A DNA stretch of 32,000 nt from Chlamydiales bacterium (lineage in GTDB: Bacteria; Chlamydiota; Chlamydiia; Chlamydiales; SM23-39): the NCBI GenBank assembly GCA_965261025.1, contig OZ253438.1, forward strand, positions 1,350,001 through 1,382,000. The letters run 5' to 3'. Of the stretch, positions 4,010 through 23,679 are shown piece after piece; position 1 is the stretch's first letter, and each line of letters begins with the position of its first letter. The notes beneath the pieces were generated by a model. The model was not told the DNA's origin, made no database searches, and saw only the letters and a list, made by a program, of their open reading frames with translations. Made by a program: the position numbers and the translations under genes.

Positions 4010-5122
4010 TTAGAAGTCAAACTGAAGTCGGATAGATACTCCGTTCAAACTCAAGTCTCCTCTAGAGACCACATCCGAGATGAAAGTGGGACTTCCTCCT
4101 TGGGTGATTCTCATCCAGTTTTGGTCAAACCAGTGATGAAATTCATACATTGCCTGCATGGAGAAGTAATGACGGTTATTATTAAAAAAGATTCCCCAAG
4201 CAACTCCTGCTTGCATTTCCATGTTCATAACATTTCGGTAAAAATCATCTATGTAATCATACCCGTTAGTTCCTGGGGCATGTTGTGTGATGTCAAATTT
4301 TCCGAAAAGGCTAGAAAAAGAAAGGTTGGCCAGTAAGCGAAAATTAGCGCCCATGAGCCATTCAGACCGAATACCACTTCTCAAACCCACTCCCCAGAAA
4401 TCATTCTTTGCTGTGGTTTTTGTATCAAGGTCTCCTCCAAAGCTTCCGCTGTATCTAGCGATATAATCTTGGTCAATCCAAGCAGCTCTAAGACCAAAAT
4501 GAGGATTCAATATCATATGACGACTTACATGATAGGGTTTCCCCATCAATATGTCGAAGACATTCATAGAAAAATGCCATCTAGAAGAGGCTCTATCATG
4601 GTTAGCCGCGGGTACCCCAGACTGGGTAATTTTCCAAAGAGGGATTAACCCAGAACCAGTTTCTGTATGAACCGAATTTTCCTCACTTAACTTAAACCAG
4701 AACCAGTTCATCTCGGTATTCCAGGCGTCATGATTCATATAACAACCGATACCTAAGCGGAATCCAAAATCCCAGCTCCAGGAGCGGTGAGAAGTAGAAT
4801 ATCCATGAACATTTCCTGTATTAATAGGGGCACTTCCCGGAGTGCTGTCAGTGATAGCATAATCCAGGCCATCTTCTTGCGGTTGCATAGCCAAGAAATC
4901 ACCTCTGAAATAAAAATCCATAGGACAAGAGAGGCTCATATCCTTTGGAAAAGAGAAAGCGAAAGGTCCTGGCTTAGGATCTTCACAGCATACATCTTTA
5001 GAAGGTTTGGGATCACAAGGCCCCTTAGGTATAGCGTAGGCTGTATTGGACAAAAGCAAAGCTAGACCTGTTGTGGTAAGAGCCTTTTTAAAAGACCGTT
5101 TTATTTGCATATATTTCTCCAT
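4010..5122 (-). CDS. Outer-membrane beta-barrel porin with a Cys/Pro-rich N-terminus (Legionella-MOMP-like / environmental-chlamydia porin type)
   Basis: Signal peptide (MQIKRSFKKALTTTGLALLLSNTAYA). A Cys/Pro-rich mature N-terminus (GPCDPKPSKDVCCEDPKPG...LSCP). An aromatic-rich sequence ending ...SIRLQFDF, where terminal Phe is the OMP signature. GGAG lies 6 nt upstream of the second ATG, so the real start is probably 5110 rather than 5122. Confidence 0.6.
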   Translation of the reverse strand: MEKYMQIKRSFKKALTTTGLALLLSNTAYAIPKGPCDPKPSKDVCCEDPKPGPFAFSFPKDMSLSCPMDFYFRGDFLAMQPQEDGLDYAITDSTPGSAPINTGNVHGYSTSHRSWSWDFGFRLGIGCYMNHDAWNTEMNWFWFKLSEENSVHTETGSGLIPLWKITQSGVPAANHDRASSRWHFSMNVFDILMGKPYHVSRHMILNPHFGLRAAWIDQDYIARYSGSFGGDLDTKTTAKNDFWGVGLRSGIRSEWLMGANFRLLANLSFSSLFGKFDITQHAPGTNGYDYIDDFYRNVMNMEMQAGVAWGIFFNNNRHYFSMQAMYEFHHWFDQNWMRITQGGSPTFISDVVSRGDLSLNGVSIRLQFDF

Positions 5123-5389
5123 TTTTCTTTAGTAAGAGATTTTTTTTGAAGTTCTCTCATTCTTTTGCCACCTTATTTTTCAGATAAAGGAGCGCATTTA
5201 GATGTTAAACGCATACATTTGTAGACAATAAATTTTTCTCTTTAATAAGCGCAATAAAAATTTTACTAATGGAGACTTTTCCTCTGTTTCTGGAAGGGAA
5301 AAGAAGTGCTCTTTTTAAGGAAAAAAAAGAAAATCCTTCTTGTTTTGCGAGGAGAAAAAATCTTTTCAGAGAGTTTTATGGAAATTGTG

Positions 5390-5419
5390 TTGTTGTAAAA
5401 TTGGGGCTTTAGATATATT
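5390..5419 (+). promoter_or_regulatory. Candidate sigma-70/66-type rRNA operon promoter
   Basis: TTGTTG (5390-5395), 18-nt spacer, TATATT (5414-5419), about 180 nt upstream of mature 16S and upstream of the leader arm of the processing helix. Sequence match only; other AT-rich hexamer pairs exist nearby. Confidence 0.2.
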
Positions 5420-5596
5420 GAACGACATCACTTTAGCAAAGAAGAGTTAAAAGTGAAGAAGGTAACCTAAGAGTGCCTAACCCTGAAAAGGGGGAAATAT
5501 CTTGATAGTGAGAAAAGAGTGCCATAAAAGTAAAAGCTTTGTGTGAGATACCTGTTTTATAGCAGGTTCCATAAATTCAAAAATTTTTCAAATTTT

Positions 5597-7149
<1,553 letters not shown>

Positions 7150-7321: not shown

Positions 7322-10559
<3,238 letters not shown>

Positions 10560-10636
10560 TTCTTTTTTTAAGAAACAACATAAGTTTTTCAAGCATCGAC
10601 TTTTTGCAGTAGTTTATAGCTCTTTTTACGATTTTT

Positions 10637-10750
10637 TCTGGTGGTTATAGGAAAGGGGAAACACCTGATCCCATCCCGAACTCAGAAGTTAAGTCCTTTT
10701 ACGCCGATGGTACTATGCACAAGAGTATGGAAGAGTAGGTTGCTGCCAGA
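10637..10750 (+). rRNA. rrf: 5S ribosomal RNA
   Basis: Helix I pairs TCTGGTGGT (5') with GCTGCCAGA (3'). The conserved CCTGATCCCATCCCGAACTCAGAAGTTAAG block is present. It lies 78 nt downstream of 23S; ends are +/- 3 nt. Confidence 0.9.
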
Positions 10751-10759
10751 TTTTTTTTC

Positions 10760-10790
10760 GCCCAACAGAGTTTTCTGTTGGGCTTTTTTT
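10760..10790 (+). terminator. Intrinsic terminator of the rRNA operon
   Basis: Perfect 10-bp stem GCCCAACAGA (10760-10769) / TCTGTTGGGC (10774-10783), loop GTTT, followed by T7 (10784-10790). It starts 10 nt after the 5S 3' end. Confidence 0.8.
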
Positions 10791-10919: not shown

Positions 10920-13900
10920 ATGAGGCCTTTTTGTAGAACTTGCTTATTTCTTTTTTTCTCTTTTTCTGTTTTTGCTGTAGATCTTACGGTGAATGTAGCC
11001 GGGGATGCCAATGTCGGTACGGAGGGAAGTTTCACAGTGGGTACTCTTTCTGGTGATTTAAGAGGGTGTCTTAATTATATCAATACGGTAACTACCTCTT
11101 CTGCCGATTCTTTTGACATTACTTTTGCTCTCACTTCGGGAAATGAAACGATTACTTTGGCTGCTATTCTTCCTGCTTTAGGACTTGCTCAGGCAAACAC
11201 GATCACAGTAAATGGAGACAATAGTTCAGGTAGTGGTACGCAGATCACTTTGAGTGGAGGAAGTTCTTTTCCGGGATTTTTTGTAAGGCAAGGTACAGTA
11301 ACGTTAAGTAATTTAACCCTAAGTAATTTGTTATCCCAGGGAGGAACAGGAGGATTTGGAGCAGGGGGAGGAGCGATAGGAGCAGGAGGTGCTGTTTTTA
11401 ATGATGAGGGAGCCGTTACTTTGAGCGATATTACTTTTAGTAGTTGCTCTGCTGTGGGAGGACAAGGGGGGACTAGCGATGGAGCCGGAGTAGGGGGCGG
11501 CGGTGGAATGTTCCAAGGAACTGGAGGTAGTAGAGGAGTTTCCAATAATCTCACTGGAGGAGGAGGGGGAGGAGGTATAGGGAGTATAGGAGGAGCAGGA
11601 GGTGCTGGAAATGGAGCAAGACCTGGCGGCGGTGGCGGCGGCGGCGGATACGGAGGCAGAGGAGGAAACGGTGGTGTAGCAGATGCGACTAATCAGGGAG
11701 CAGGAGGAGGAGGAGGAGGCGTTTTCTCTCAAGGAGGAAATGGAGGAACCGGAGGAGGAAATGGAGGAACCGGTCAAGCTGCGAGCTCCATTGATGGGTT
11801 ACGTATAGGTGGAGCAGGCGGAGGGGGAGGCTCTACTGGAGGAACTGGGGGCACTGCTTCCGGTGGTAGTGGTTGTACCTCTGACGGAGGATCAGGAGGG
11901 GGGGGCGGATCAGGAAGTGGATCTCCTGTTTGTGCAAATGGTTCTGGGAACACAGGAGGAGCCGGAGGAATTTATGGAGGAGGGGGAGGAGCCGGCGCTG
12001 ATGCAGAATCTGTAGGAGGAGCAGGAGGGGTCGGAGGAGGAGGAGCAGGAAGTTTAACGATTACTGGAGCCTCTGTAGGAGGAGCAGGAGGATATGGCGG
12101 TGGTGGTGGCGGCTGTGGTGGTGCTGCAGGATTTGGAGGAGGCGGTGGTGGTGCATTTAGAGCGGCTGCTCTAAATGGAGGAAATGGGGGATTTGGAGGA
12201 GGAGGAGGAGGGGGCTGCGGCGTTAGTGGCTTAGAAAGAGAAGGGGGAGATGGAGGATTTGGTGCAGGCAGTGGAGGAGGAGGGACTACCACAGGAAGTC
12301 CTGGAATAGGCGGTGGTACAGGAGAAACCTCTACTTCTACTCCCGGAGGAGGAGGGGGGGCAGGACTCGGTGGTGCGGTTTTTAGTAGAGCAGGTTCGAT
12401 AACATTTCAGGGAGGGATCACCACTAGCTCTAATTCGGTTACAGCAGGAGCGGCGGGTTCCGGTAGTAGCTCAGCTGAACCGGGGGCTGCTGCTTCAACA
12501 GACTTTTTTGGTGTATCTAATGTAAGTTTTGGAGGTACTTCTTTAACGTTTGCTCCAGCTGTTTCTACAACGAGCACATTTAATGGGACTATCGGAGACT
12601 CTAGCAGCACTACTTTACCAGATGTGGGAACGTATGAGCCAGGAGCGGGAGCGGGTCTTAATTTATTACATAATGGGGCAGGGACTACTACTTTAGTAGG
12701 AACAAATACTTATGCAGGAACTACTACGGTTTCAGCGGGAGTGCTTTCTGTAACGGGGGATATTTCTAATAGCAGTAGTCTGACGGTAAATTCTGGAGGA
12801 ACGATTAGTACTAGTTTATTAAGTAAAGTTCCCTCTAGCATTACGGTGAATTCGGGGGGGATTTTCGAGCTGAATATATCTTCAGATTTAGAGATCACCA
12901 CGGATTTTTTAGCGGGAGAAGCCGGAATTTTGCAAAAGGCGGGAAGCGCTAATCTAACGGTTTCTACGAATGCGGGTACTTACACAGGAGGAACTAACTT
13001 AACTGCAGGAACCATTACAGCAGAAATTAATGAGGCCTTGGGAAGCGGAAGCATCAATATAACAGATGGAGCAACTCTTGCCTTAGATTCAGCCATTAGT
13101 TTATCAAATGATGTAGCTATATTACCTTCTGCTACAGCTACTGTATCTGTGACTGCAGGAACAGGGACTTTATCGGGGGTTATTTCAGGATCAGGGGGGA
13201 TATTAGAGAAAACGGGTTCGGCAACGCTGGCTTTAAGCGGAAATAGCACGTATACCGGAGGAACTAATTTAACTGCAGGAACCATTTCAGTAGGTACGGA
13301 TGCAGATGCTTTAGGTACAGGTACGCTGAGCATGAGTGATGGGACGACTTTTTTTATAGAAGATGCTTTGACTATTGCCAATGACATTAACCTTACAGGA
13401 ACAAATTCTTTTGACTCAGGTGCCTCAGTAGATTATGTCCTTTCTGGAGTGGTTAGTGGAACAGGTACTTTTACCAAATTAGGAGTAAGAAGTGTTACTT
13501 TTACTAATGCCTCAAATGATTTTTCTGGGGGGATTACTTTTTCTAATGGAAATATTGGTGTTTCTGCAAGTGGCGGTTTAGGAACAGGGACCATTTCTTT
13601 TGTAGGAGGATTAACTCTGAATATAGGAAATGGGGTTACTTTGAGTAATAACCTTGTAGGAACCAGCGGAACTAGAAATGTGCTTGTTGATGGATTAGCG
13701 ACCACGGCAACTATGAATGGTCAGTTTGTCTCTGGGACTTTTTTCAAGACAGGAAGCGGAACTTTGATCTATGATGGAGATGGATCTAGTTCTAGCGCTA
13801 TTGTTTTCGTATCTCAAGGGCAATTTAATCTAACAGGAGATTTACCTTCGGCAACGCTAAATTTGACAGCTTCTGGGGTTCCTTTTAACGTAACAGGAGC

Positions 13901-16900
13901 AGGTGAGCACCAACTCCAATCACTGCAAGGAACCGGAGGTGTTTTAATTGACTCAGGATCGACCCTTACTTTTGTAACCGCATTTAGTACTTATGCGGGA
14001 CCTACTTCAGGTAGTGGAAATATAAGAATAGCCAGTGGAGCAATTACGTTTAATGCAACAGGAGCCCACACAGGAACTACTACAGTAGAAGGAACTCTCA
14101 CTTTAGGAAGTAGTGTGGATTTTACTAGCTCCGCTTTTACAGTTGGCTCAGGAGGCACTCTTACCAAGGGAAGTGGCTCAAGTAGCATAGGAAGTCTTGC
14201 AGGAGAGGGAAGCGTAAGTTTAGGTGCTTCCACAAGTCTTACAGCAGGCAGCAATAACACTACAACTACCTTTTCGGGAACTTTTTCTGGTTCTGGTACT
14301 TTTACCAAAGCAGGGAGTGGGACTCTTACGCTTTCTGGTGTAAGTAGCGGCTTTAGTGGGGGAATTACTCTTTCTGCAGGGGCTATTACGGCAGGAGATA
14401 ATGAGGCTTTAGGCACAGGTGCCTTTGCTATGTCTGATTCTACTACTTTAAGTTTCACTCCTTCTCTTACTATAGCCAACGAGGTTAATTTTTCCGGTAG
14501 TAATACGCTTAGTATTAGTTCGGGTAGTTCGACTCTTTCTGGGGTTTTGGCTGGAACAGGAGCCCTATCTAAAACGGGAGGAGGTACGCTTATCTTCTCT
14601 GGGGTTTCTAATACATACTCTGGTACAACCAGTATTGCGGCGGGTTCTTTGGCTTTAGCCTCCGGTAGCAATCTTGTAAGCTCTGCTATTACAGTAGAAG
14701 CTTCCGCAACGCTAGAAAAACAGTTAGGGACAGGAACAAGTACTATAGGAAGTCTTGCAGCCTCTTCGAGTTTAGCAACCGTTTCTCTAGCCAGTTCTAC
14801 CACTCTTTCCATAGGAGATGATGATACTTCCACGGAATTTGCAGGGGGGGTTACAGGTGCAGGAGTTGTAGAGAAAATAGGAACAGGAACCCTGACCTTA
14901 TCGGGAAGTAACGATTATACAGGAGGAACTACTTTAACAAGTGGGACTATTTCGGCAGGTAGTAGTAGCGCTTTAGGTGCTTCTTCTGGATCTCTTTCTA
15001 TGGCAAGTGGAACAACTCTTGCTATGAGTTCAGGAGTAAGTCTTGCAAACGGAATCACACTAACAGGAACAGATACAGTAGCGGTGGCAAGTGGTACAGC
15101 AACTTTAACAGGAATTATTACTAGTACAGGAAGTTTAGTAAAGACGGGAGCAGGAGTTCTTTCTTTAACAGGAAGCAATGATTACTCAGGGGGGACGACT
15201 CTCTCTGCTGGTACCATCTCTGCGGGTAGCAATAGCGCTTTGGGAGCTTCTTCTGGGTCTCTTTCTATGGCAGATGCAACTACATTAACCTTAGTTTCAG
15301 GAGTGAGCTTACCCAATCCTATTTCAGTAGGCGGTGGAAATGAGGGGTCTTTGAATGTTTCTTCAGGAACTGCTACCTTAACAGGTACTATTTCAGGGGC
15401 AGGGGGAGTTGCTAAGACAGGTTCTGGAACCTTGACGATAAGCTCCAATATTACCACGGCCACTCTTGCAGTAAGCGCGGGAACTTTACTCTATAACGGA
15501 ACCAGTACTTCGGCTACTTCTGTCGCCTCTTCTGCTACTTTAGGAGGAAATGGTACATTGAATTCGGTTTCCAATGCAGGGACGATTAGTCCTGGGAATT
15601 CTATAGATACTTTAACGGCCGATACCTTTACTTTTTTGGATAACTCGAATCTTGAAATAGAGATCAATGAGACAGAATCAGATAAGATTGTAGCAACTAC
15701 AAGTGTTACTATTGGAGACAATGTCAGCGTTACTGTTCTACCATTAGCGAATATGTATCCTTCTTTTGCTAGGTACACAATCGTAGAGTCTCCTTCTATA
15801 GTCGGGGATTTTGATTTGATTATAGAAAATTTTGGCTCTTTTAGCTTTTCCTTTGATACTTCTATAGCAGGGCAGATAGATTTAATTTTGCAAAGAGATG
15901 ATCTTCAGGGTGTGGTTCAAGGGGGGAATCCAGGGCAAGTAGCCATAGCTTTAGACTTACTTCCCCTCTCCGATGCTGATGTGACGGAAGTGCGTACTGT
16001 TTTACAAGCATCAAACTCTACTATTTTGAGAAGGCAGCTGGATGAAATGCAACCTTCTCGATTTCATGCGTTATACCTAGCCCAGCAAGAGCTGGGGTTT
16101 TATCTTTTATCCTCGGTAAAAAATGTCCGATGTGAAAGGGAACTCTTTTGCAAAAGGGGGGTAAAAGTAGGTTTTTGGCAACAAGGTTTTTATGCCTTTT
16201 CTGATCAGAGGAATCTAAATAAGAAAACCACTTTAGATGGAAATAATGGATTTAGGACAGAAAAAGGAGGCATTTTAGTAGGACTGGATGTCTTTCAGGA
16301 AGAAAGAGCAAAAGTAGGAGTTTTTGCAGGAGGCTCTAGGGCTCGTGTAAGGATGGATGCTTTTTCAGAAAGGGGAAAAGCAGAAAGTGGATATGCAGGA
16401 ATTCATGCTTACAGAAGGTGGGATTTTCTAAGAGCAAACTTAACGGGTTTTGCAGCGCATAACCGTTACAAAACAAGAAGGAATATTCATCTAGAAAGCT
16501 CTTTTGGCATGATAGATAGAAAAGCAAAAGGTTCTTTTGATGGATGGCAGTTTGGAGGGCAAAATAGGTGGGAAATTATTGGACAAAAACAAATATCGGG
16601 GATTCTTTCTTATGCCTCTTTGGGCTATCAATATAGCTGCCAACGACGATACAAAGAAAGAGGAGCAAACAGCTTAAATCTACAGGTAGGGAATAAACAA
16701 GCGCAGATGACCTTCATAGAAGGAGGAATAGGCTTTTTTTATAATAAAAAACCTATTTGTACAGAGATTTTTCTAGGAATGGTGAGAGAACAAAGGTGGG
16801 GAGGAAAAGATACAAAGGTAAATTTTGCCATTAGCGATTATACCTTTTTAGTAAAAGGAATGAATCCGAGCAGAAGCTATCTGCACATAGAGGGGAAATG

Positions 16901-17012
16901 GGGAAGGTCTGCTCAAAAAAAAGAACCAGGGTTCTTCATAAAATATGAAGCAAAAGCGGGAACACAAATCCGAGAGCATTTAGCAAGTGCTTCTTTGGAA
17001 TGGGAGTTTTAA
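10920..17012 (+). CDS. Giant type Va autotransporter / polymorphic-membrane-protein-like adhesin (2030 aa)
   Basis: Domain order:
- Signal peptide MRPFCRTCLFLFFSFSVFA
- Pmp-like N-terminal module (GDLRGCLNYIN...ITF...TITL...LPAL...TITVNG, then GGAIGAGGAVFNDEGAVTLSDITFSSCSA)
- About 50% Gly segment, aa 141-490
- About 12 autotransporter-associated beta-strand (PATR-like) modules (xTYTGGTxLTAGTI...ALGTGxLxM)
- Junction GTISPGNSIDTLTADTFTF...
- About 280-aa C-terminal beta-barrel (from about nt 16167) ending LEWEF. Confidence 0.85.
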   Translation: MRPFCRTCLFLFFSFSVFAVDLTVNVAGDANVGTEGSFTVGTLSGDLRGCLNYINTVTTSSADSFDITFALTSGNETITLAAILPALGLAQANTITVNGDNSSGSGTQITLSGGSSFPGFFVRQGTVTLSNLTLSNLLSQGGTGGFGAGGGAIGAGGAVFNDEGAVTLSDITFSSCSAVGGQGGTSDGAGVGGGGGMFQGTGGSRGVSNNLTGGGGGGGIGSIGGAGGAGNGARPGGGGGGGGYGGRGGNGGVADATNQGAGGGGGGVFSQGGNGGTGGGNGGTGQAASSIDGLRIGGAGGGGGSTGGTGGTASGGSGCTSDGGSGGGGGSGSGSPVCANGSGNTGGAGGIYGGGGGAGADAESVGGAGGVGGGGAGSLTITGASVGGAGGYGGGGGGCGGAAGFGGGGGGAFRAAALNGGNGGFGGGGGGGCGVSGLEREGGDGGFGAGSGGGGTTTGSPGIGGGTGETSTSTPGGGGGAGLGGAVFSRAGSITFQGGITTSSNSVTAGAAGSGSSSAEPGAAASTDFFGVSNVSFGGTSLTFAPAVSTTSTFNGTIGDSSSTTLPDVGTYEPGAGAGLNLLHNGAGTTTLVGTNTYAGTTTVSAGVLSVTGDISNSSSLTVNSGGTISTSLLSKVPSSITVNSGGIFELNISSDLEITTDFLAGEAGILQKAGSANLTVSTNAGTYTGGTNLTAGTITAEINEALGSGSINITDGATLALDSAISLSNDVAILPSATATVSVTAGTGTLSGVISGSGGILEKTGSATLALSGNSTYTGGTNLTAGTISVGTDADALGTGTLSMSDGTTFFIEDALTIANDINLTGTNSFDSGASVDYVLSGVVSGTGTFTKLGVRSVTFTNASNDFSGGITFSNGNIGVSASGGLGTGTISFVGGLTLNIGNGVTLSNNLVGTSGTRNVLVDGLATTATMNGQFVSGTFFKTGSGTLIYDGDGSSSSAIVFVSQGQFNLTGDLPSATLNLTASGVPFNVTGAGEHQLQSLQGTGGVLIDSGSTLTFVTAFSTYAGPTSGSGNIRIASGAITFNATGAHTGTTTVEGTLTLGSSVDFTSSAFTVGSGGTLTKGSGSSSIGSLAGEGSVSLGASTSLTAGSNNTTTTFSGTFSGSGTFTKAGSGTLTLSGVSSGFSGGITLSAGAITAGDNEALGTGAFAMSDSTTLSFTPSLTIANEVNFSGSNTLSISSGSSTLSGVLAGTGALSKTGGGTLIFSGVSNTYSGTTSIAAGSLALASGSNLVSSAITVEASATLEKQLGTGTSTIGSLAASSSLATVSLASSTTLSIGDDDTSTEFAGGVTGAGVVEKIGTGTLTLSGSNDYTGGTTLTSGTISAGSSSALGASSGSLSMASGTTLAMSSGVSLANGITLTGTDTVAVASGTATLTGIITSTGSLVKTGAGVLSLTGSNDYSGGTTLSAGTISAGSNSALGASSGSLSMADATTLTLVSGVSLPNPISVGGGNEGSLNVSSGTATLTGTISGAGGVAKTGSGTLTISSNITTATLAVSAGTLLYNGTSTSATSVASSATLGGNGTLNSVSNAGTISPGNSIDTLTADTFTFLDNSNLEIEINETESDKIVATTSVTIGDNVSVTVLPLANMYPSFARYTIVESPSIVGDFDLIIENFGSFSFSFDTSIAGQIDLILQRDDLQGVVQGGNPGQVAIALDLLPLSDADVTEVRTVLQASNSTILRRQLDEMQPSRFHALYLAQQELGFYLLSSVKNVRCERELFCKRGVKVGFWQQGFYAFSDQRNLNKKTTLDGNNGFRTEKGGILVGLDVFQEERAKVGVFAGGSRARVRMDAFSERGKAESGYAGIHAYRRWDFLRANLTGFAAHNRYKTRRNIHLESSFGMIDRKAKGSFDGWQFGGQNRWEIIGQKQISGILSYASLGYQYSCQRRYKERGANSLNLQVGNKQAQMTFIEGGIGFFYNKKPICTEIFLGMVREQRWGGKDTKVNFAISDYTFLVKGMNPSRSYLHIEGKWGRSAQKKEPGFFIKYEAKAGTQIREHLASASLEWEF
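11340..12389 (+). repeat. Hyper-glycine low-complexity coding segment (GGA/GGT/GGC/GGG codon arrays) inside the autotransporter
   Basis: My hand count gives about 174 Gly in 350 residues (aa 141-490), with runs such as GGGGGGG, PGGGGGGGGYGGRGGNGG and GYGGGGGGCGGAAGFGGGGGG. The DNA is strongly purine- and G-rich on the coding strand (ggaggaggaggagga, ggcggcggtggcggcggcggcgga). Confidence 0.9.
12672..15500 (+). repeat. Diverged tandem PATR-like passenger modules (about 60-90 aa each, about 12 copies)
   Basis: Recurrent blocks: NTYAGTTTVSAGVL, GTYTGGTNLTAGTI, STYTGGTNLTAGTI, SNTYSGTTSIAAGSL, SNDYTGGTTLTSGTISAGSSSALGASSGSLSMASGTTL and SNDYSGGTTLSAGTISAGSNSALGASSGSLSMADATTL. They are conserved at protein level but diverged at DNA level. 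Confidence 0.7.
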
Positions 17013-17782
17013 AAGCGGAGCTCTCCAGATACGGTAACTCCATTTTGATTGAGAAAACGAGCTTCTACATCAATGGTCATAGTCTGAGAAGAAAGTAGCG
17101 TAGATCCTAAGATAAGACCCCATTTTTTGTGATTTACGGTAGAAGGAGAGCTAAACTCCAAAATTACGTCTTGAGAGGGAATATCCATCATCCCTGAAGA
17201 AGGGTCTGGGTCAATTCGGGCTTCTAAATAACTTAGCCCCAAATAGGGAACAAAGATGCTTACTTGATAGGCAAGGCTTAAAGATCCCTGTATTTCTGTG
17301 TAGTGTAAAGAAAAAGAAGAAAGGATGAGAGCTGGGGTGGTTTTTTCTAAGATAAAGTAAGTAGGATTTTGTTTCGTTGCAAAAAACGTGCCGGCTATGC
17401 CTAAAAAAAGGGGAGGTTTTTCGTATAGAAGAATTCTTCCTCCTACGCCCCAGGAAAATCTTCTAGAAGAGAAGAGCTCCTGATCAAATTGAATTTTAGA
17501 AGAACCTAACAAAGAATAGATATCCACCTTGTGGAAAAAGTTTGCAGTAATTGTAGTTGCATAAGTGGAGAGTGTTATTTTTGACTGCTCTGTTTGATCG
17601 AGTAGAAACTCCTCTTGAAAAGAGCTATTATAGATATAATCCGCTAGATACTCTGCTCTTAGAGAAATAGGTTTATTTTCTTCCCATATAAACCCTCTGC
17701 GGTAAAGAGAAGTTAAAGCAGGATTACCTGAGCTAGTTCCGTATAAGAGAGAAAAAAGAGAGAGAAAAAATAAAAGCCTCAT
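17009..17782 (-). CDS. Short chlamydial MOMP/PorB-family outer-membrane beta-barrel protein
   Basis: The signal peptide is followed by SSGNPALTSLYRRGFIWEE (compare chlamydial MOMP/PorB mature N-termini ...GNPAEPSL.../...GNPAFPVI...). The C-terminus ...GVTVSGELRF resembles PorB ...VNVSGGFQF and ends in Phe. The ORF track starts at 17788. I prefer the ATG at 17782, which overlaps the upstream gene's TGA as ATGA. Confidence 0.6.
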   Translation of the reverse strand: MRLLFFLSLFSLLYGTSSGNPALTSLYRRGFIWEENKPISLRAEYLADYIYNSSFQEEFLLDQTEQSKITLSTYATTITANFFHKVDIYSLLGSSKIQFDQELFSSRRFSWGVGGRILLYEKPPLFLGIAGTFFATKQNPTYFILEKTTPALILSSFSLHYTEIQGSLSLAYQVSIFVPYLGLSYLEARIDPDPSSGMMDIPSQDVILEFSSPSTVNHKKWGLILGSTLLSSQTMTIDVEARFLNQNGVTVSGELRF

Positions 17783-18630
17783 GAACATACAGAGTCATTT
17801 TCCTTAATTCTTTCTTTCTGAATCCACTGTTTTTTCTGGATATACTGGGTAAGGGCTTTCTGAATGTATTGGACTGTTTTTCTTTTGGGAAAAGAAAATG
17901 AGTCAATTTTTTTAATAGGAATAACTTCCTTGTTAGTAGCTGCTAAGAAAACCTCTTCCATCTCTGGTAGCTCTTTATAAAAAATAGGTCGTTGTTCAAA
18001 GGAAAACAAGGAGAGAAGGACCTCCCTTGTGACCCCAGGATATATATTTTCAGAAGGAGTAAGAAGCTTGCCTTTTTTTACACAAAAAAAGTTAGAGGTC
18101 GCAGATTCCAAAATCTCTTGCTTGGTAGAAAGATATAACACTTCAAAAATGGCTGGGTTTTTTTGTTGTGTTTGTATGGCAGGAAGGTAGCTCGAAGTTT
18201 TTATTTCAGGAAGAAACCTTTCGTAGGAAAAGGTGGCTAGCTCCACTCCCTCTTCATAGAAAGAAGAGGGATAGGGAAGGTAAGGAGTACAGAAGATTAC
18301 CAATCCTGGTTTTTCATTTATTTGTAAATTAGAAGAGATGCCTCCTGTGATAAAGATCTTAAAAGTCCATTCCTCTTGGCTTTGTTTAGGAATCATTTTT
18401 CTCATGATTGTATAAAAATCTTCCTTGCTATAGGAAATATTAAGACCTAATTTGTGACAGCCGTTTTTTAATCTTTCTACATGTTTTTCCCAATGAAAGG
18501 GCTGCTTTTCATAGGTGCGAATTGTAGCAGAAAGAGCATAGCCTCTTGCAATACTCAGATCCGAAATAGAAAGTTGGGCTTTAGACAAGGGAATAAATTT
18601 ACCATTTACAAAAGCAAGGGGAAAAGACAT
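17779..18630 (-). CDS. Class IV (fold type IV) PLP aminotransferase (BCAT / D-amino-acid aminotransferase / ADC-lyase family)
   Basis: The family pattern ESATSNFFCVKKGKLLTPSENIYPGVTRE is present, and the N-terminus FVNGKFIPLSKAQLSISDLSIARGY is typical. AAGGAG lies 6 nt upstream of the ATG at 18630, so this start is preferred over the ATG at 18651 in the ORF track. Substrate class cannot be decided from sequence by eye. Confidence 0.75.
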   Translation of the reverse strand: MSFPLAFVNGKFIPLSKAQLSISDLSIARGYALSATIRTYEKQPFHWEKHVERLKNGCHKLGLNISYSKEDFYTIMRKMIPKQSQEEWTFKIFITGGISSNLQINEKPGLVIFCTPYLPYPSSFYEEGVELATFSYERFLPEIKTSSYLPAIQTQQKNPAIFEVLYLSTKQEILESATSNFFCVKKGKLLTPSENIYPGVTREVLLSLFSFEQRPIFYKELPEMEEVFLAATNKEVIPIKKIDSFSFPKRKTVQYIQKALTQYIQKKQWIQKERIKENDSVCS

Positions 18631-21001: not shown

Positions 21002-21367
21002 ATGAAAAAGGTATTTTCTTTACTCGCCCTCTTGGGCTCTTCTTCCTTGTTTGCCGAAAGTGGGCAAACTTCTCAAAGTAATCTTACTTCCCTTTTAGTG
21101 TGGGTGGGTTTTGCTATTTTTTTCTTTTATTTCATTTTGTATCGTCCTGAGCAGAAAAGAAGAAAGAAAGCACTTCAGATGAGGTCCCTTATGAAAAAGG
21201 GAGATAAAGTCACTGCGATGGGAATCGTAGGGGTTATTTCTCAAGTAAAAGAGGATACAGTTGTTTTAAAGATGGTGGATGGAGCCAAGATTGAAATGTT
21301 AAAAGGGGCCATCACAGAGGTAACTTCTGCCGCCTCTGAAGAAGCCAAGGAATCTGTTACCGCTTAA
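21002..21367 (+). CDS. yajC: Preprotein translocase subunit YajC
   Basis: The TM segment plus ILYRPEQKRRKKALQMRSLMKKGDKVTAMGIVGVISQVKEDTVVLKMVDGAKIEMLKGAITEV is the YajC signature. GAGG lies 7 nt upstream of the ATG at 21002. The ORF-track TTG at 20951 is probably too far upstream. Confidence 0.85.
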   Translation: MKKVFSLLALLGSSSLFAESGQTSQSNLTSLLVWVGFAIFFFYFILYRPEQKRRKKALQMRSLMKKGDKVTAMGIVGVISQVKEDTVVLKMVDGAKIEMLKGAITEVTSAASEEAKESVTA

Positions 21368-23679
21368 GAGTGTCTCCCAGGACTAGGGGGAGGACTTAAT
21401 AGAGCCAGGTTTTGCAACAGGTTTTTTTGATCCTCAAAAGCAAGCGCCTTAAATCCGTTTATGAGCTCTTCGTTTGTGAGTGATGTATCGCTTTGTTTTC
21501 TGTTTTGCAGAGAGCGTGCAAGGGTCTCTTCTGTTAGGCTCAATCTGTTAGCTTGTTCCAGAAACAGAGCCATCTTAGGTGAATAAGAGGCTACTAGGAG
21601 GCTTTCATCTGGTTTTTGGATGCTGGTGATATATTTCATCAAGGCCTGTTGAGTTTTTCTTATTTCTTCTTCTAATTGAGACCTTTCTTCTCTTTGTCCT
21701 AGAGAAAGAGTTCCAAGCTCTTCTTGGGCTTTGTTAAGGCTCTCCGTTCTCTCTGCAAGGGAACTTTGAAGTTCTGAGATTCTGCTTAAAAGTCTATTGT
21801 TTGCGATTTCTTGATCTTTTTCAAAAGAGATTTTTCGGTTTTGAAGCTGCTCTAACTCTTTTAAGAGACTTTCCTTTTCTTTTTCTAATGTTTCAATAGT
21901 AGAAGATCTAGTTTCAAGATGAGAATCTAAAGTAGAAAGCTGTTGTTTAAGGTCGCTATTTTCTTTTCTTTGTTGCTCTAAAAGAGCTTCTATCTGATTT
22001 TCCTCATTAGAAGTAGAGACTGTCTCTGAAGGGCCTTGAAGAGTTAGTCGGTTTTTCATTTCTTTCATGGCTTGTTTGGTTTTCTCTAGTTCTTTTTGTT
22101 GACTCTCTATTGTACTCAATTGAGAAGTCTTCTCTTCGATAGCTTGCTCTAAATCTTTTCTACTGCTTTCCAGTGCCTGTATTAATTCGGAGATTTCTTC
22201 TGACTGCTTTTTATTTGTTTCGATCAATTGGCTTAGGTCTTGAGAAGACTCCTGCTGAGGTGTAGTAGTTTGTCTTGAAGTGAAGGTAATTCCTGAGAGG
22301 AAGTTTTCATCTTCTTTTTGTTTCTGAGCAGAAGAAGCACTTGAGGCGCTAGCTTTCAAAATAGCTATTTCGCTATTCAGGGCTTGTAACTGACTTTGAA
22401 GAGTTAAAATGGTACCATCTTTAGCCCTACCGTCTTCTTTGGCCTTTTCAAGATCTTGGGTTACTGTAGCAAGTCTAGCTTCTAAGCGATTTTTTTCCTC
22501 TTGTAGCTCTTTAAGCTGCTCTTCTAGGGAAGAAGTATGACTTTTTAGTCCTGAGAGTTCTTGTTCTTTTTGGGCTAGCGAACTTTGAAGAGAAGTTATT
22601 TGGTTTTGTAGCTGCGTTTTCTCTTGGTTAGCTTGTGTAAGCTTTTCTTGGAGCGCTTTGGTAGTGTTGTTAAGGGTTTCTTTTTCTGCTTGAAGTTTTG
22701 CTAGCTGCTCTTCTAGGGAAGAAGTATGACTTTTTAGTCCTGAGAGTTCTTGTTCTTTTTGGGCTAGCGAACTTTGAAGAGAAGTTATTTGGTTTTGTAG
22801 CTGCGTTTTCTCTTGGTTAGCTTGTGTAAGCTTTTCTTGGAGCGCTTTGGTAGTGTTGTTAAGAGTTTCTTTTTCTGCTTGAAGTTTTGCTAGCTGCTCT
22901 TCTAGGGAAGAAATACGGCTTTTTAGTCCTGAGAGCTCTTCTTCTTTTTGGGCTAGCGAACTTTGAAGAGAAGTTACCTGGCTTTGTAGCTGCGTTTTCT
23001 CTTGGTTAGCTTGTGTAAGCTTTTCTTGGAGCGCTTTGGTAGTGTTGTTAAGAGTTTCTTTTTCTGCTTGAAGTTTTGCTAGCTGCTCTTCCAGGGAAGA
23101 AATACGGCTTTTTAGTCCTGAGAGTGCTTGTTCTTTTTGGGCTAGCGAACTTTGAAGAGAAGTTACCTGGTTTTGTAGTTGCGTTTTCTCTTGGTTAGCT
23201 TGTGTAAGCTTTTCTTGGAGCGCTTTGGTGTTGTTAAGAGTTTGTTTTTCTGCTTGAAGCTTTGCTAGCTTGTTTTCAATTTCTTGAACATCTTCTAATT
23301 TTTTCTCAAGGTTTTGTAGTCTGTTTTCATAATTTGCTAAAGTTTTTCTTAAAGCTTGATTTTCAGAAAAAAGATCTTCAGGTTTAGGGGTAAGAGAATA
23401 AGAATGAGGAGGAAAGGATAAGGGAAGGCTTTTTTCTGCTTTTTGTACTTTTCCTAAGTTAAAAATAGCCTCCCACGCTTTTAAGAGAGGACCTTGTAAA
23501 TTAGTTATTGTGTGAAAACCTTGCTTAGAAACTAGCTGTAAATAGCTTGTTTCTCCTAGCTTTCCTGCTGTTATGTCTGCCTGACCATAATCTTTTACAA
23601 GAAAATTCTTTGCTTCTTGCGCTTCTAGATTAAGAGATAAAGAGCTAGTTTTTGTATTGTTATATCTTTGTACAGTCAT
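21364..23679 (-). CDS. Large coiled-coil repeat protein (771 aa), function unknown; candidate secreted effector or structural protein
   Basis: Uninterrupted 771-codon ORF. It is Q/E/K/L/S-rich with heptad periodicity along most of its length. It has a non-repetitive about 100-aa N-terminus without a signal peptide, four 63-aa tandem repeats, and a Pro-rich C-terminal tip (LLSPPPSPGRHS). Confidence 0.8.
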   Translation of the reverse strand: MTVQRYNNTKTSSLSLNLEAQEAKNFLVKDYGQADITAGKLGETSYLQLVSKQGFHTITNLQGPLLKAWEAIFNLGKVQKAEKSLPLSFPPHSYSLTPKPEDLFSENQALRKTLANYENRLQNLEKKLEDVQEIENKLAKLQAEKQTLNNTKALQEKLTQANQEKTQLQNQVTSLQSSLAQKEQALSGLKSRISSLEEQLAKLQAEKETLNNTTKALQEKLTQANQEKTQLQSQVTSLQSSLAQKEEELSGLKSRISSLEEQLAKLQAEKETLNNTTKALQEKLTQANQEKTQLQNQITSLQSSLAQKEQELSGLKSHTSSLEEQLAKLQAEKETLNNTTKALQEKLTQANQEKTQLQNQITSLQSSLAQKEQELSGLKSHTSSLEEQLKELQEEKNRLEARLATVTQDLEKAKEDGRAKDGTILTLQSQLQALNSEIAILKASASSASSAQKQKEDENFLSGITFTSRQTTTPQQESSQDLSQLIETNKKQSEEISELIQALESSRKDLEQAIEEKTSQLSTIESQQKELEKTKQAMKEMKNRLTLQGPSETVSTSNEENQIEALLEQQRKENSDLKQQLSTLDSHLETRSSTIETLEKEKESLLKELEQLQNRKISFEKDQEIANNRLLSRISELQSSLAERTESLNKAQEELGTLSLGQREERSQLEEEIRKTQQALMKYITSIQKPDESLLVASYSPKMALFLEQANRLSLTEETLARSLQNRKQSDTSLTNEELINGFKALAFEDQKNLLQNLALLSPPPSPGRHS
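22516..23268 (-). repeat. In-frame tandem repeat array, 4 copies x 189 bp (one copy 186 bp), inside the coiled-coil gene
   Basis: Copy boundaries are 22516-22704, 22705-22893, 22894-23082 and 23083-23268. The first two differ at a single nucleotide (aagGgtttc vs aagAgtttc). The fourth lacks one codon (NNTKAL vs NNTTKAL). Degenerate partial copies flank both ends. Confidence 0.95.

Follow-up and report, generated by a model that had tools for sequence, protein, structure and literature searches.

A hyper-glycine-headed PATR-type autotransporter and candidate adhesin of an environmental chlamydia

A gene of 6.1 kb located directly behind an rRNA operon in a Chlamydiales genome raises the question whether its product is an unusual mosaic or a regular member of a protein family. 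The gene (10920..17012, + strand) lies in a window of 32,000 nt, which is the whole stretch of DNA that was analysed (Chlamydiales bacterium, GCA_965261025.1, contig OZ253438.1, positions 1,350,001 to 1,382,000 of the forward strand; all nucleotide positions given below are those of the window). A first-pass annotation, made from the sequence alone, described the product as a chimeric autotransporter that combines a chlamydial Pmp-style N-terminal module, a glycine-rich spacer, PATR modules and a classical beta-barrel. We arrive at a different view. The protein is, with good confidence, an intact type Va autotransporter of the PATR subtype, which belongs to a large multi-phylum family with a fixed architecture and is a probable adhesin.

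The gene is a single, uninterrupted open reading frame (ORF). It starts with ATG and codes for 2,030 aa (protein end ...LEWEF, followed by the stop codon). The protein is collinear, from the first residues through the terminal Phe, with three full-length homologues (P0002, P0005 and P0006, see below). The single long frame assumed at the outset was thus confirmed. The first 19 residues (MRPFCRTCLFLFFSFSVFA, followed by VD; 10920..10976, +) read as a Sec-type signal peptide, as judged from a hydrophobic core of 12 residues behind a basic n-region and from V-x-A at positions -3/-1. In the AlphaFold2 (AF2) model, the leader has a helix at residues 2-10, and the first strand begins at aa 20. Homologues carry equivalent leaders.

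The stalk of the passenger (aa 580-1528; 12657..15503, +) is built from PATR units. In the whole protein, Pfam PF12951 matches nine stretches with 110.7 bits (110.7-121.5 bits across scans), and NCBIfam TIGR02601 matches eight stretches with 107.7 bits. For placing the units, we used our own hidden Markov model (HMM), which was iterated on the protein itself. It finds about 10 units, one per ca. 90 aa, with starts at aa 580, 668, 759, 848, 1125, 1213, 1314, 1403 and 1494 and a partial unit at aa 938. PATR modules are therefore present, but the initial count of about 12 was slightly high (8-9 by the library HMMs).

[quoted passage not shown] The NCBIfam model EprS matches the protein, this match being limited to the C-terminal 540 positions of the model. 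For aa 1511-2030, an AF2 model from 18 sequences (pLDDT, the per-residue confidence measure, 89.3), consists of the beta-helix end (strands at 1516-1659, pLDDT ca. 90), a helical linker and a barrel. The linker (aa 1662-1735; 15903..16124, +; AF2 and DSSP) includes a long alpha-helix (aa 1713-1735) that directly precedes the first barrel strand. The barrel (aa 1749-2030; 16164..17009, +) is the autotransporter translocator, with 74.2-76.5 bits for PF03797 against a cut-off of 26 when the C-terminal 330-530 aa are scanned. The top Foldseek matches of the C-terminal model are all autotransporter translocators: EstA (6e-27), AaaA (9e-26) and NalP (7e-21; TM 0.80-0.83 on the target), and also EspP, AIDA-I, BrkA and Hbp (E-values 6e-27 to 1e-14 overall). 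The last residue is Phe, which represents the C-terminal aromatic beta-signal; Phe or Trp is terminal in 106 of the 120 best homologues. HMM searches, which had been proposed as a check, thus found both PATR and barrel well above cut-off, and the classical Va barrel ending in Phe is supported by PF03797, AF2 and Foldseek alike.

Homologues were searched in 5.8 billion proteins; 990 matches were found among the candidates scored, and the best 120 were examined. In 106 of these, a stretch with at least 40% Gly over 200 aa begins no later than residue 450, and 94 show both an N-terminal Gly block and a terminal Phe or Trp. Most of the 120 have a signal peptide, a G(S/D)LRxAIxxN-type motif and PATR, and many have the motifs GG.G.GGA(I/V)F and GGGGAG.GGA(I/V)F, which bracket the Gly block. 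The shared order is signal peptide, G(S/D)LRxAIxxN cap, Gly block, PATR stalk and barrel. The protein studied here has the cap motif as GDLRGCLNYIN at aa 45, the bracketing motifs at aa 151 and 479, and up to 55% Gly over 200 aa. It thus shows all hallmarks of this unnamed family (cap, two rungs, and a Gly block of at least 200 aa with at least 40% Gly), which we define here by an alignment (A1) of the first 620 aa with 23 homologous heads (38-60% identity to our protein).

Chlamydial homologues come from Candidatus Rhabdochlamydia, Parachlamydiales, Chlamydiales and 'Chlamydiae bacterium' metagenome-assembled genomes (MAGs) from Rifle. Other sources are Verrucomicrobia, Planctomicrobium (Planctomycetes) and Alpha- and Betaproteobacteria, with Paraburkholderia, Bosea, Mesorhizobium, Aminobacter, Reyranella and Odyssella as named sources on the proteobacterial side. 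The direct database homologues bear the NCBI name 'autotransporter-associated beta strand repeat-containing protein'. The closest full-length relative (P0002, head 60% identical) is from a 'Chlamydiae bacterium RIFCSP...' MAG from Rifle. In Rhabdochlamydia, P0006 and P0009 are true homologues that share both head and Gly block. A 2,511-aa paralogue (P0005) is encoded in the same genome outside the window, on a contig of identical length, 1,422,118 bp, and has the same head, with a canonical 'GAGSLRNAIDSAN' cap, and a Gly block. The PATR stalk of the paralogue consists of near-identical long repeats, and this sequence pattern suggests a recent internal duplication. A single scan of genome contigs returned only one, partial, relative (CAYGOC010000020.1, 2,642 bp, from an 'uncultured bacterium' MAG). 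It is a 56%-identical counterpart of aa 1136-2020, and therefore a closer relative of the organism is present in public data.

Among 1.84 billion cluster representatives, the A1 profile matched 39,336 at E<=1e-3, 12,987 at E<=1e-10 and 2,960 at E<=1e-30. Some of these matches are to PATR alone, because the last ca. 50 profile positions are PATR-like. Among the best 150, dozens matched over the whole profile at their N-terminus. The complete profile also matches at internal or C-terminal positions of giant proteins (P0137, 5,873 aa, at 5041-5517; P0145, 6,324 aa, at 1514-2036; also P0225 and P0239). Use of the head module is therefore not confined to the standard autotransporter layout.

With the same layout in Rhabdochlamydia, Parachlamydiales and chlamydial MAGs, in other phyla and in a paralogue, the architecture is not unusual for the phylum, and the comparison with related Chlamydiae, which had been suggested as a check, argues against the original claim. 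The PATR type has been described as a subtype of autotransporters (Doyle et al. 2015, cited in both PMC8111173 and PMC9977779), and an autotransporter phylogeny places it (group 8, with IcsA, ShdA and MisL) next to the Pmps (group 7) (PMC9289746). For these reasons, a PATR autotransporter in a chlamydia is not surprising.

How do other readings of the gene fare? A lineage-specific chimera, joined from a Pmp head, a glycine spacer and a proteobacterial PATR stalk and barrel, would be in line with the differing composition of the modules (GC 0.52 in the Gly region vs ca. 0.38 in the flanks) and with one GGAI/GGAV ... F-x-x-C-x-A rung that is like a Pmp coil. However, the GC rise simply reflects the content of GGN codons, the homologues are collinear end to end, the 94 homologues with this module order are from chlamydiae as well as other phyla, and no Pmp HMM matches, all of which makes a chimera quite implausible. 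That the protein is instead a divergent member of the Chlamydiaceae Pmp family is very unlikely, too, even though the protein comes from a chlamydia and combines an autotransporter barrel with a beta-helical passenger, and even though Pmps are phylogenetic neighbours of the PATR type. Similar proteins in chlamydia-related bacteria have also been termed 'Pmp-like' or 'PmpB homologs' (PMC6490308). What decides against Pmp membership are the domain searches. Neither PF02415 (Chlam_PMP) nor PF07548 (PMP_M) nor the NCBIfam POMP-repeat matches at E<=10, whether the whole protein or five overlapping pieces are searched. Scans of aa 501-1550 and 1501-2030 at this threshold return PATR and Autotransporter alone and no PMP_M. 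Pmp models do not match the N-terminal modules of 24 family members, and PF02415 is absent from the precomputed annotation of all 120 best homologues. The motifs, too, are few. There are three copies of GGA[ILV] (aa 150, 156 and 484), all at the two edges of the Gly block, and three copies of FxxN, which is below the chance mean (4.7 +/- 2.2 in shuffled sequences). C. trachomatis Pmps have, on average, 6.5 GGA(I/L/V) and 13.6 FxxN per protein (PMC11166332). The single Pmp-like rung ('GGAIGAGGAVF...ITFSSCSA', with a true FxxN at this place in homologues) is one generic beta-helix rung of the coil type used by Pmps, and not a Pmp module. The Pmp-style N-terminal module of the first-pass annotation has thus to be dropped.

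An assembly artefact or a decaying pseudogene is extremely unlikely. Long repetitive genes are prone to mis-assembly, and the start region speaks against an intact, expressed gene in two respects: there is no AGGAG-like Shine-Dalgarno (SD) sequence within 25 nt of the ATG at 10920, and a search of the + strand from the rrn terminator to the ATG gave no sigma-70-like promoter. But the frame is intact and contains every essential part in the correct order. It matches independent homologues collinearly, carries almost no tandem repeats at the DNA level and is part of a contig of 1.42 Mb. The first-pass annotation had correctly stated that there is no recognisable SD. However, the same holds for about half of the window's other genes. 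The missing SD is therefore a property of the genome and is not peculiar to this gene, and we rejected it as a sign of non-expression. We thus retain the assignment as an intact PATR-type autotransporter.

The distal part of this autotransporter is the head, for which an AF2 model of aa 1-620 was obtained (pTM 0.85, mean pLDDT 79.4; beta-helix strands at aa 20-179 and 487-611). It begins with the N-terminal beta-helix cap (aa 20-180; 10977..11459, +), which contains the GDLRGCLNYIN motif and the first rung discussed above. The strands of the cap have a pLDDT of mostly 76-98 per 10-residue block. Pfam Pectate_lyase_5 matches four of 24 homologous heads. The cap is followed by the hyper-glycine block (aa ca. 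181-480; 11460..12359, +; delimited by composition, alignment and AF2). Gly accounts for 42-58% per 50-aa window between aa ca. 140 and 490. There are 13 poly-Gly runs (four or more residues), usually followed by a hydrophobic residue, which are ca. 13-38 residues apart. Their mean spacing of ca. 24 aa is about the length of a beta-helix coil. A second rung ('GGGGAGLGGAVF') and further beta-helix rungs then join the head to the stalk (aa 481-579; 12360..12656, +; strands at 487-560, pLDDT mostly 88-97). The GGGGAGLGGAVF motif is nearly invariant in the family.

The Gly block can be aligned across phyla, with 26 invariant columns, invariant Gly, conserved Phe/Tyr and 'GG.GGFGGGGG' units. Among close relatives, conservation extends to Cys and further non-Gly positions. 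According to DSSP, the block has neither helix nor strand but only isolated bridges, several of them i/i+3 (219/222, 276/279, 454/457 and 463/466). The pLDDT is 70-85 at aa 190-270, 62-79 at aa 340-400 and mostly 90-97 at aa 420-480. At the DNA level, the block has merely four short tandem arrays (24-42 nt each, 2.0-2.7 copies), and DNA slippage was therefore rejected as its origin. A hyper-Gly block of ca. 350 aa, as initially described, is thus real. It is, however, not a spacer between modules, because it is located inside the distal head between two conserved rungs, is alignable with invariant positions and is in part confidently modelled. The structure prediction that had been proposed for the passenger yielded a beta-helix with a Gly block devoid of helix and strand for the head, and it also covered the beta-helix end (aa 1516-1659).

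We tentatively propose that the Gly block (ca. 300-350 aa, between two GGA(V/I)F rungs) is an undescribed folded, glycine-scaffolded domain, which would serve as the ligand-binding tip of thousands of PATR autotransporters from Chlamydiota, Verrucomicrobiota, Planctomycetota and Proteobacteria. It could consist of ca. 13 stacked poly-Gly 'rungs' or of a polyglycine-II-type lattice. A polyglycine-II-type or glycine-solenoid structure would produce a model of this kind, ordered but without helix or strand. The Gly block has no relative in Pfam, NCBIfam or PDB: phmmer with the block alone returned nothing meaningful from PDB, and the best PDB matches of the A1 profile in the Gly region are non-significant (LTK glycine-rich domain, E 0.29; Pam3 phage fibre, E 0.6). 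In the literature searched, there was no paper on polyglycine structure in autotransporter passengers or on a glycine-rich head of a chlamydial autotransporter.

Some results count against a folded tip. The pLDDT drops to ca. 47 at aa 270-340 and below 50 at aa 401-414, and a Foldseek search with the head model against PDB and BFVD retrieved nothing at E<=1e-3 and no characterised binding domain. These results would fit an intrinsically disordered, low-complexity spacer or entropic linker that has no defined fold. So would the Gly content of ca. 50%, the absence of regular secondary structure by DSSP and the length of the block, which varies among homologues (it is shorter by ca. 130 aa in P0017). 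We nevertheless consider disorder rather doubtful. The block lies between conserved rungs inside the head and not between head and stalk. Invariant columns and conserved aromatics across phyla, the confidently modelled stretches (with pTM 0.85), poly-Gly runs that recur at about the spacing of beta-helix rungs and the lack of slippage-type DNA repeats also argue against it. A further possibility concerns the passenger as a whole, which might not be an adhesin but an enzyme or a toxin, such as a polysaccharide-lyase-like beta-helix. The weak Foldseek neighbours of the head are right-handed beta-helix enzymes, tailspikes and collagen-like proteins, among them pectate lyases, pectin methylesterases and phage depolymerases, and the Pectate_lyase_5 matches to homologous heads point in the same direction. 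These structural matches are, however, non-significant (E>0.2) and reflect a generic right-handed beta-helix. PF20585 itself is described as an 'adhesive domain', and the Pfam and NCBIfam scans detected no catalytic family, which makes an enzyme improbable.

From the biology of type Va autotransporters, we infer the following route for the protein. The signal peptide would direct it via Sec to the periplasm. The C-terminal barrel with its terminal Phe would then insert into the outer membrane, with the helical linker in the pore. The passenger would be extruded from its C- to its N-terminus and would fold into a long right-handed beta-helix stalk of ca. 10 PATR-containing super-repeats of ca. 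90 aa, with the PATRs aiding secretion. The N-terminal head (ca. 560 aa), which consists of the cap and the Gly block between its two GGA(V/I)F rungs, would end up at the distal end, farthest from the membrane. By analogy to characterised relatives, this environmental chlamydia from outside the Chlamydiaceae most likely uses the protein for adhesion to host cells or surfaces, and the glycine-rich head would be its working end. The sequence identifies no ligand. Precedents for adhesins are the Pmp-like autotransporter wcw_0271 of Waddlia and its counterpart from R. helvetica (PMC6490308), the PATR-type Brucella proteins BmaA/B/C (PMC8111173) and, from group 8, IcsA, ShdA and MisL (PMC9289746). 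The protein is a reasonable surface-protein and adhesin candidate, as had been suggested.

Among known systems, the PATR autotransporters BmaA/B/C and ShdA/MisL share with the protein the signal peptide, the PF03797 barrel and a passenger that is a long beta-helix with several PF12951/TIGR02601 repeats. Their size scales with the number of PATRs, and the characterised members are adhesins. They differ in that a G(S/D)LR cap and a hyper-Gly head are not shown here for characterised members, and in that our protein is from an environmental chlamydia. The NCBIfam model for ShdA matches it weakly (21.5 bits). IcsA (VirG) from Shigella is also of type Va and has N-terminal glycine-rich repeats (aa 117-307; PMC9769942), a PATR and a barrel; among PATR autotransporters with such repeats it has been studied best. 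Its PATR (aa 526-557) aligns with the unit at aa 1405-1436 by BLASTP, and the A1 profile matches the IcsA structure 5ke1 at 1e-8 via its PATR-like part. However, IcsA has only a single PATR, and its repeats are far less Gly-rich. A homology between these repeats and the Gly block was considered and rejected, as hhalign of the head profile against IcsA aa 1-502 gave a probability of 0.14% and BLASTP finds only the PATR. The N-WASP/actin function of IcsA cannot be transferred.

The Chlamydiaceae Pmps (PmpA-I, Pmp21) are likewise chlamydial outer-membrane autotransporters with beta-helical passengers and a likely role in adhesion. They share the GGA(I/V)...F-x-x-(N/C)-x-A rung, which occurs once or twice in our protein. 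In place of a PF02415 array and PMP_M, however, the latter has PATR and a Gly block. The 'Pmp-like' proteins wcw_0271 and RhT_00552 and the 'Simkania PmpB homologs' (PMC6490308) are from the same ecological group, carry few GGAI/FxxN motifs and consist of signal peptide, passenger and barrel. This comparison is by description and not by sequence, and Gly block and PATR content are not mentioned in that source.

For the Gly block itself, polyglycine-II domains offer a comparison. Such domains occur in the glycine-rich domain of ALK/LTK, the adhesin tip gp38 of phage S16, the snow-flea antifreeze protein and mycobacterial PE_PGRS proteins. The polyglycine-II lattice consists of bundled left-handed helices formed by Gly runs (phi ca. 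-75, psi ca. 145). The Gly block resembles these domains in its many poly-Gly runs and in being predicted as ordered without helix or strand. As in gp38, the Gly domain would be at the distal tip of an elongated fibre. However, there is no significant sequence or fold similarity, Foldseek does not retrieve these proteins, and the run spacing of ca. 24 aa fits a solenoid of ca. 13 rungs equally well.

The gene is located downstream of an rRNA operon (16S 5596-7149, 23S 7322-10560, 5S 10637-10751). The 5S gene is followed by a terminator-like G+C-rich hairpin and a T-run (10760..10783, +), which lie outside of the autotransporter gene. The ATG is 137 nt downstream of the hairpin, so that the position right after the rrn terminator had been described correctly. 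An operon with, or a functional link to, the rRNA operon was considered and rejected. The adjacency, like the absent SD, looks incidental because the terminator separates the two, the downstream gene is convergent, and P0002 sits in a different context. The P0002 locus has on one side (contig L003, 1-7867) a type III secretion cluster (YscJ/FliF, FliH, FliP, Bac_export_3 and Bac_export_1 families) and a glycosyltransferase, and on the other (13690-17264) a heparinase II/III-like gene and another glycosyltransferase.

Several neighbouring features were observed in passing. The convergent gene (17009-17788, - strand) overlaps the stop codon of the autotransporter gene by 4 nt. It codes for 259 aa with a weak match to Chlam_OMP/MOMP (34.5 bits) and is a putative outer-membrane porin. 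Upstream of the rRNA operon, a 370-aa ORF (4010-5122, - strand) matches Legionella_OMP with 95.5 bits and codes for a putative porin of a MOMP-like type. A 771-aa ORF (21364-23679, - strand) may code for a long coiled-coil protein, as its sole family matches are coiled-coil models (SMC, Rad50, APG6 and liprin-like).

The 16S gene contains an exact match (6129-6146, + strand) to GCTGCGGTAATACGGAGG, which we take to be the target of the Chlamydiales probe Chls-0523. It includes a C-to-T change in the universal 515-530 region, presumably one that is typical of Chlamydiales. Together with the chlamydial best homologues of the autotransporter, the probe match supports the assignment to the phylum; the organism is an environmental chlamydia outside the Chlamydiaceae. 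The 23S gene is interrupted by a group I intron of ca. 303 nt (9292-9594, + strand), which explains its span of 3,239 nt. Rfam RF00028 matches 9291-9552 with 56.2 bits (gathering score 50, E 7e-13). At the junctions, the upstream exon ends with ...AACTATAACGGT, the intron ends with ...CAATG and the downstream exon continues with CCTAAG. The intron has no ORF of a size expected for a homing endonuclease. By E. coli numbering, the insertion site would be at ca. position 1923 (I-CeuI type) and not the I-CpaI/1931 site reported for Simkania. Among chlamydiae, group I introns in 23S genes have been reported for some Simkaniaceae only (PMC6019428).

At the level of the gene, the value of this analysis is mainly corrective. 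The autotransporter is an ordinary member of a large family and gives no indication of an unusual gene fusion or of horizontal mosaicism in chlamydiae. The small genome (1.42 Mb) of this environmental chlamydia encodes at least two large surface-protein candidates, and as one of them the autotransporter is a sensible target for studies on adhesion and host range. The part that merits further work is the hyper-glycine head, which is a feature of the family and not specific to this gene. A conserved tip module with ca. 50% Gly, found in thousands of autotransporters, has neither a family model nor a solved relative nor a description in the literature searched. The structure of this head module would be of general interest for the biology of protein folds and for what these adhesins bind.

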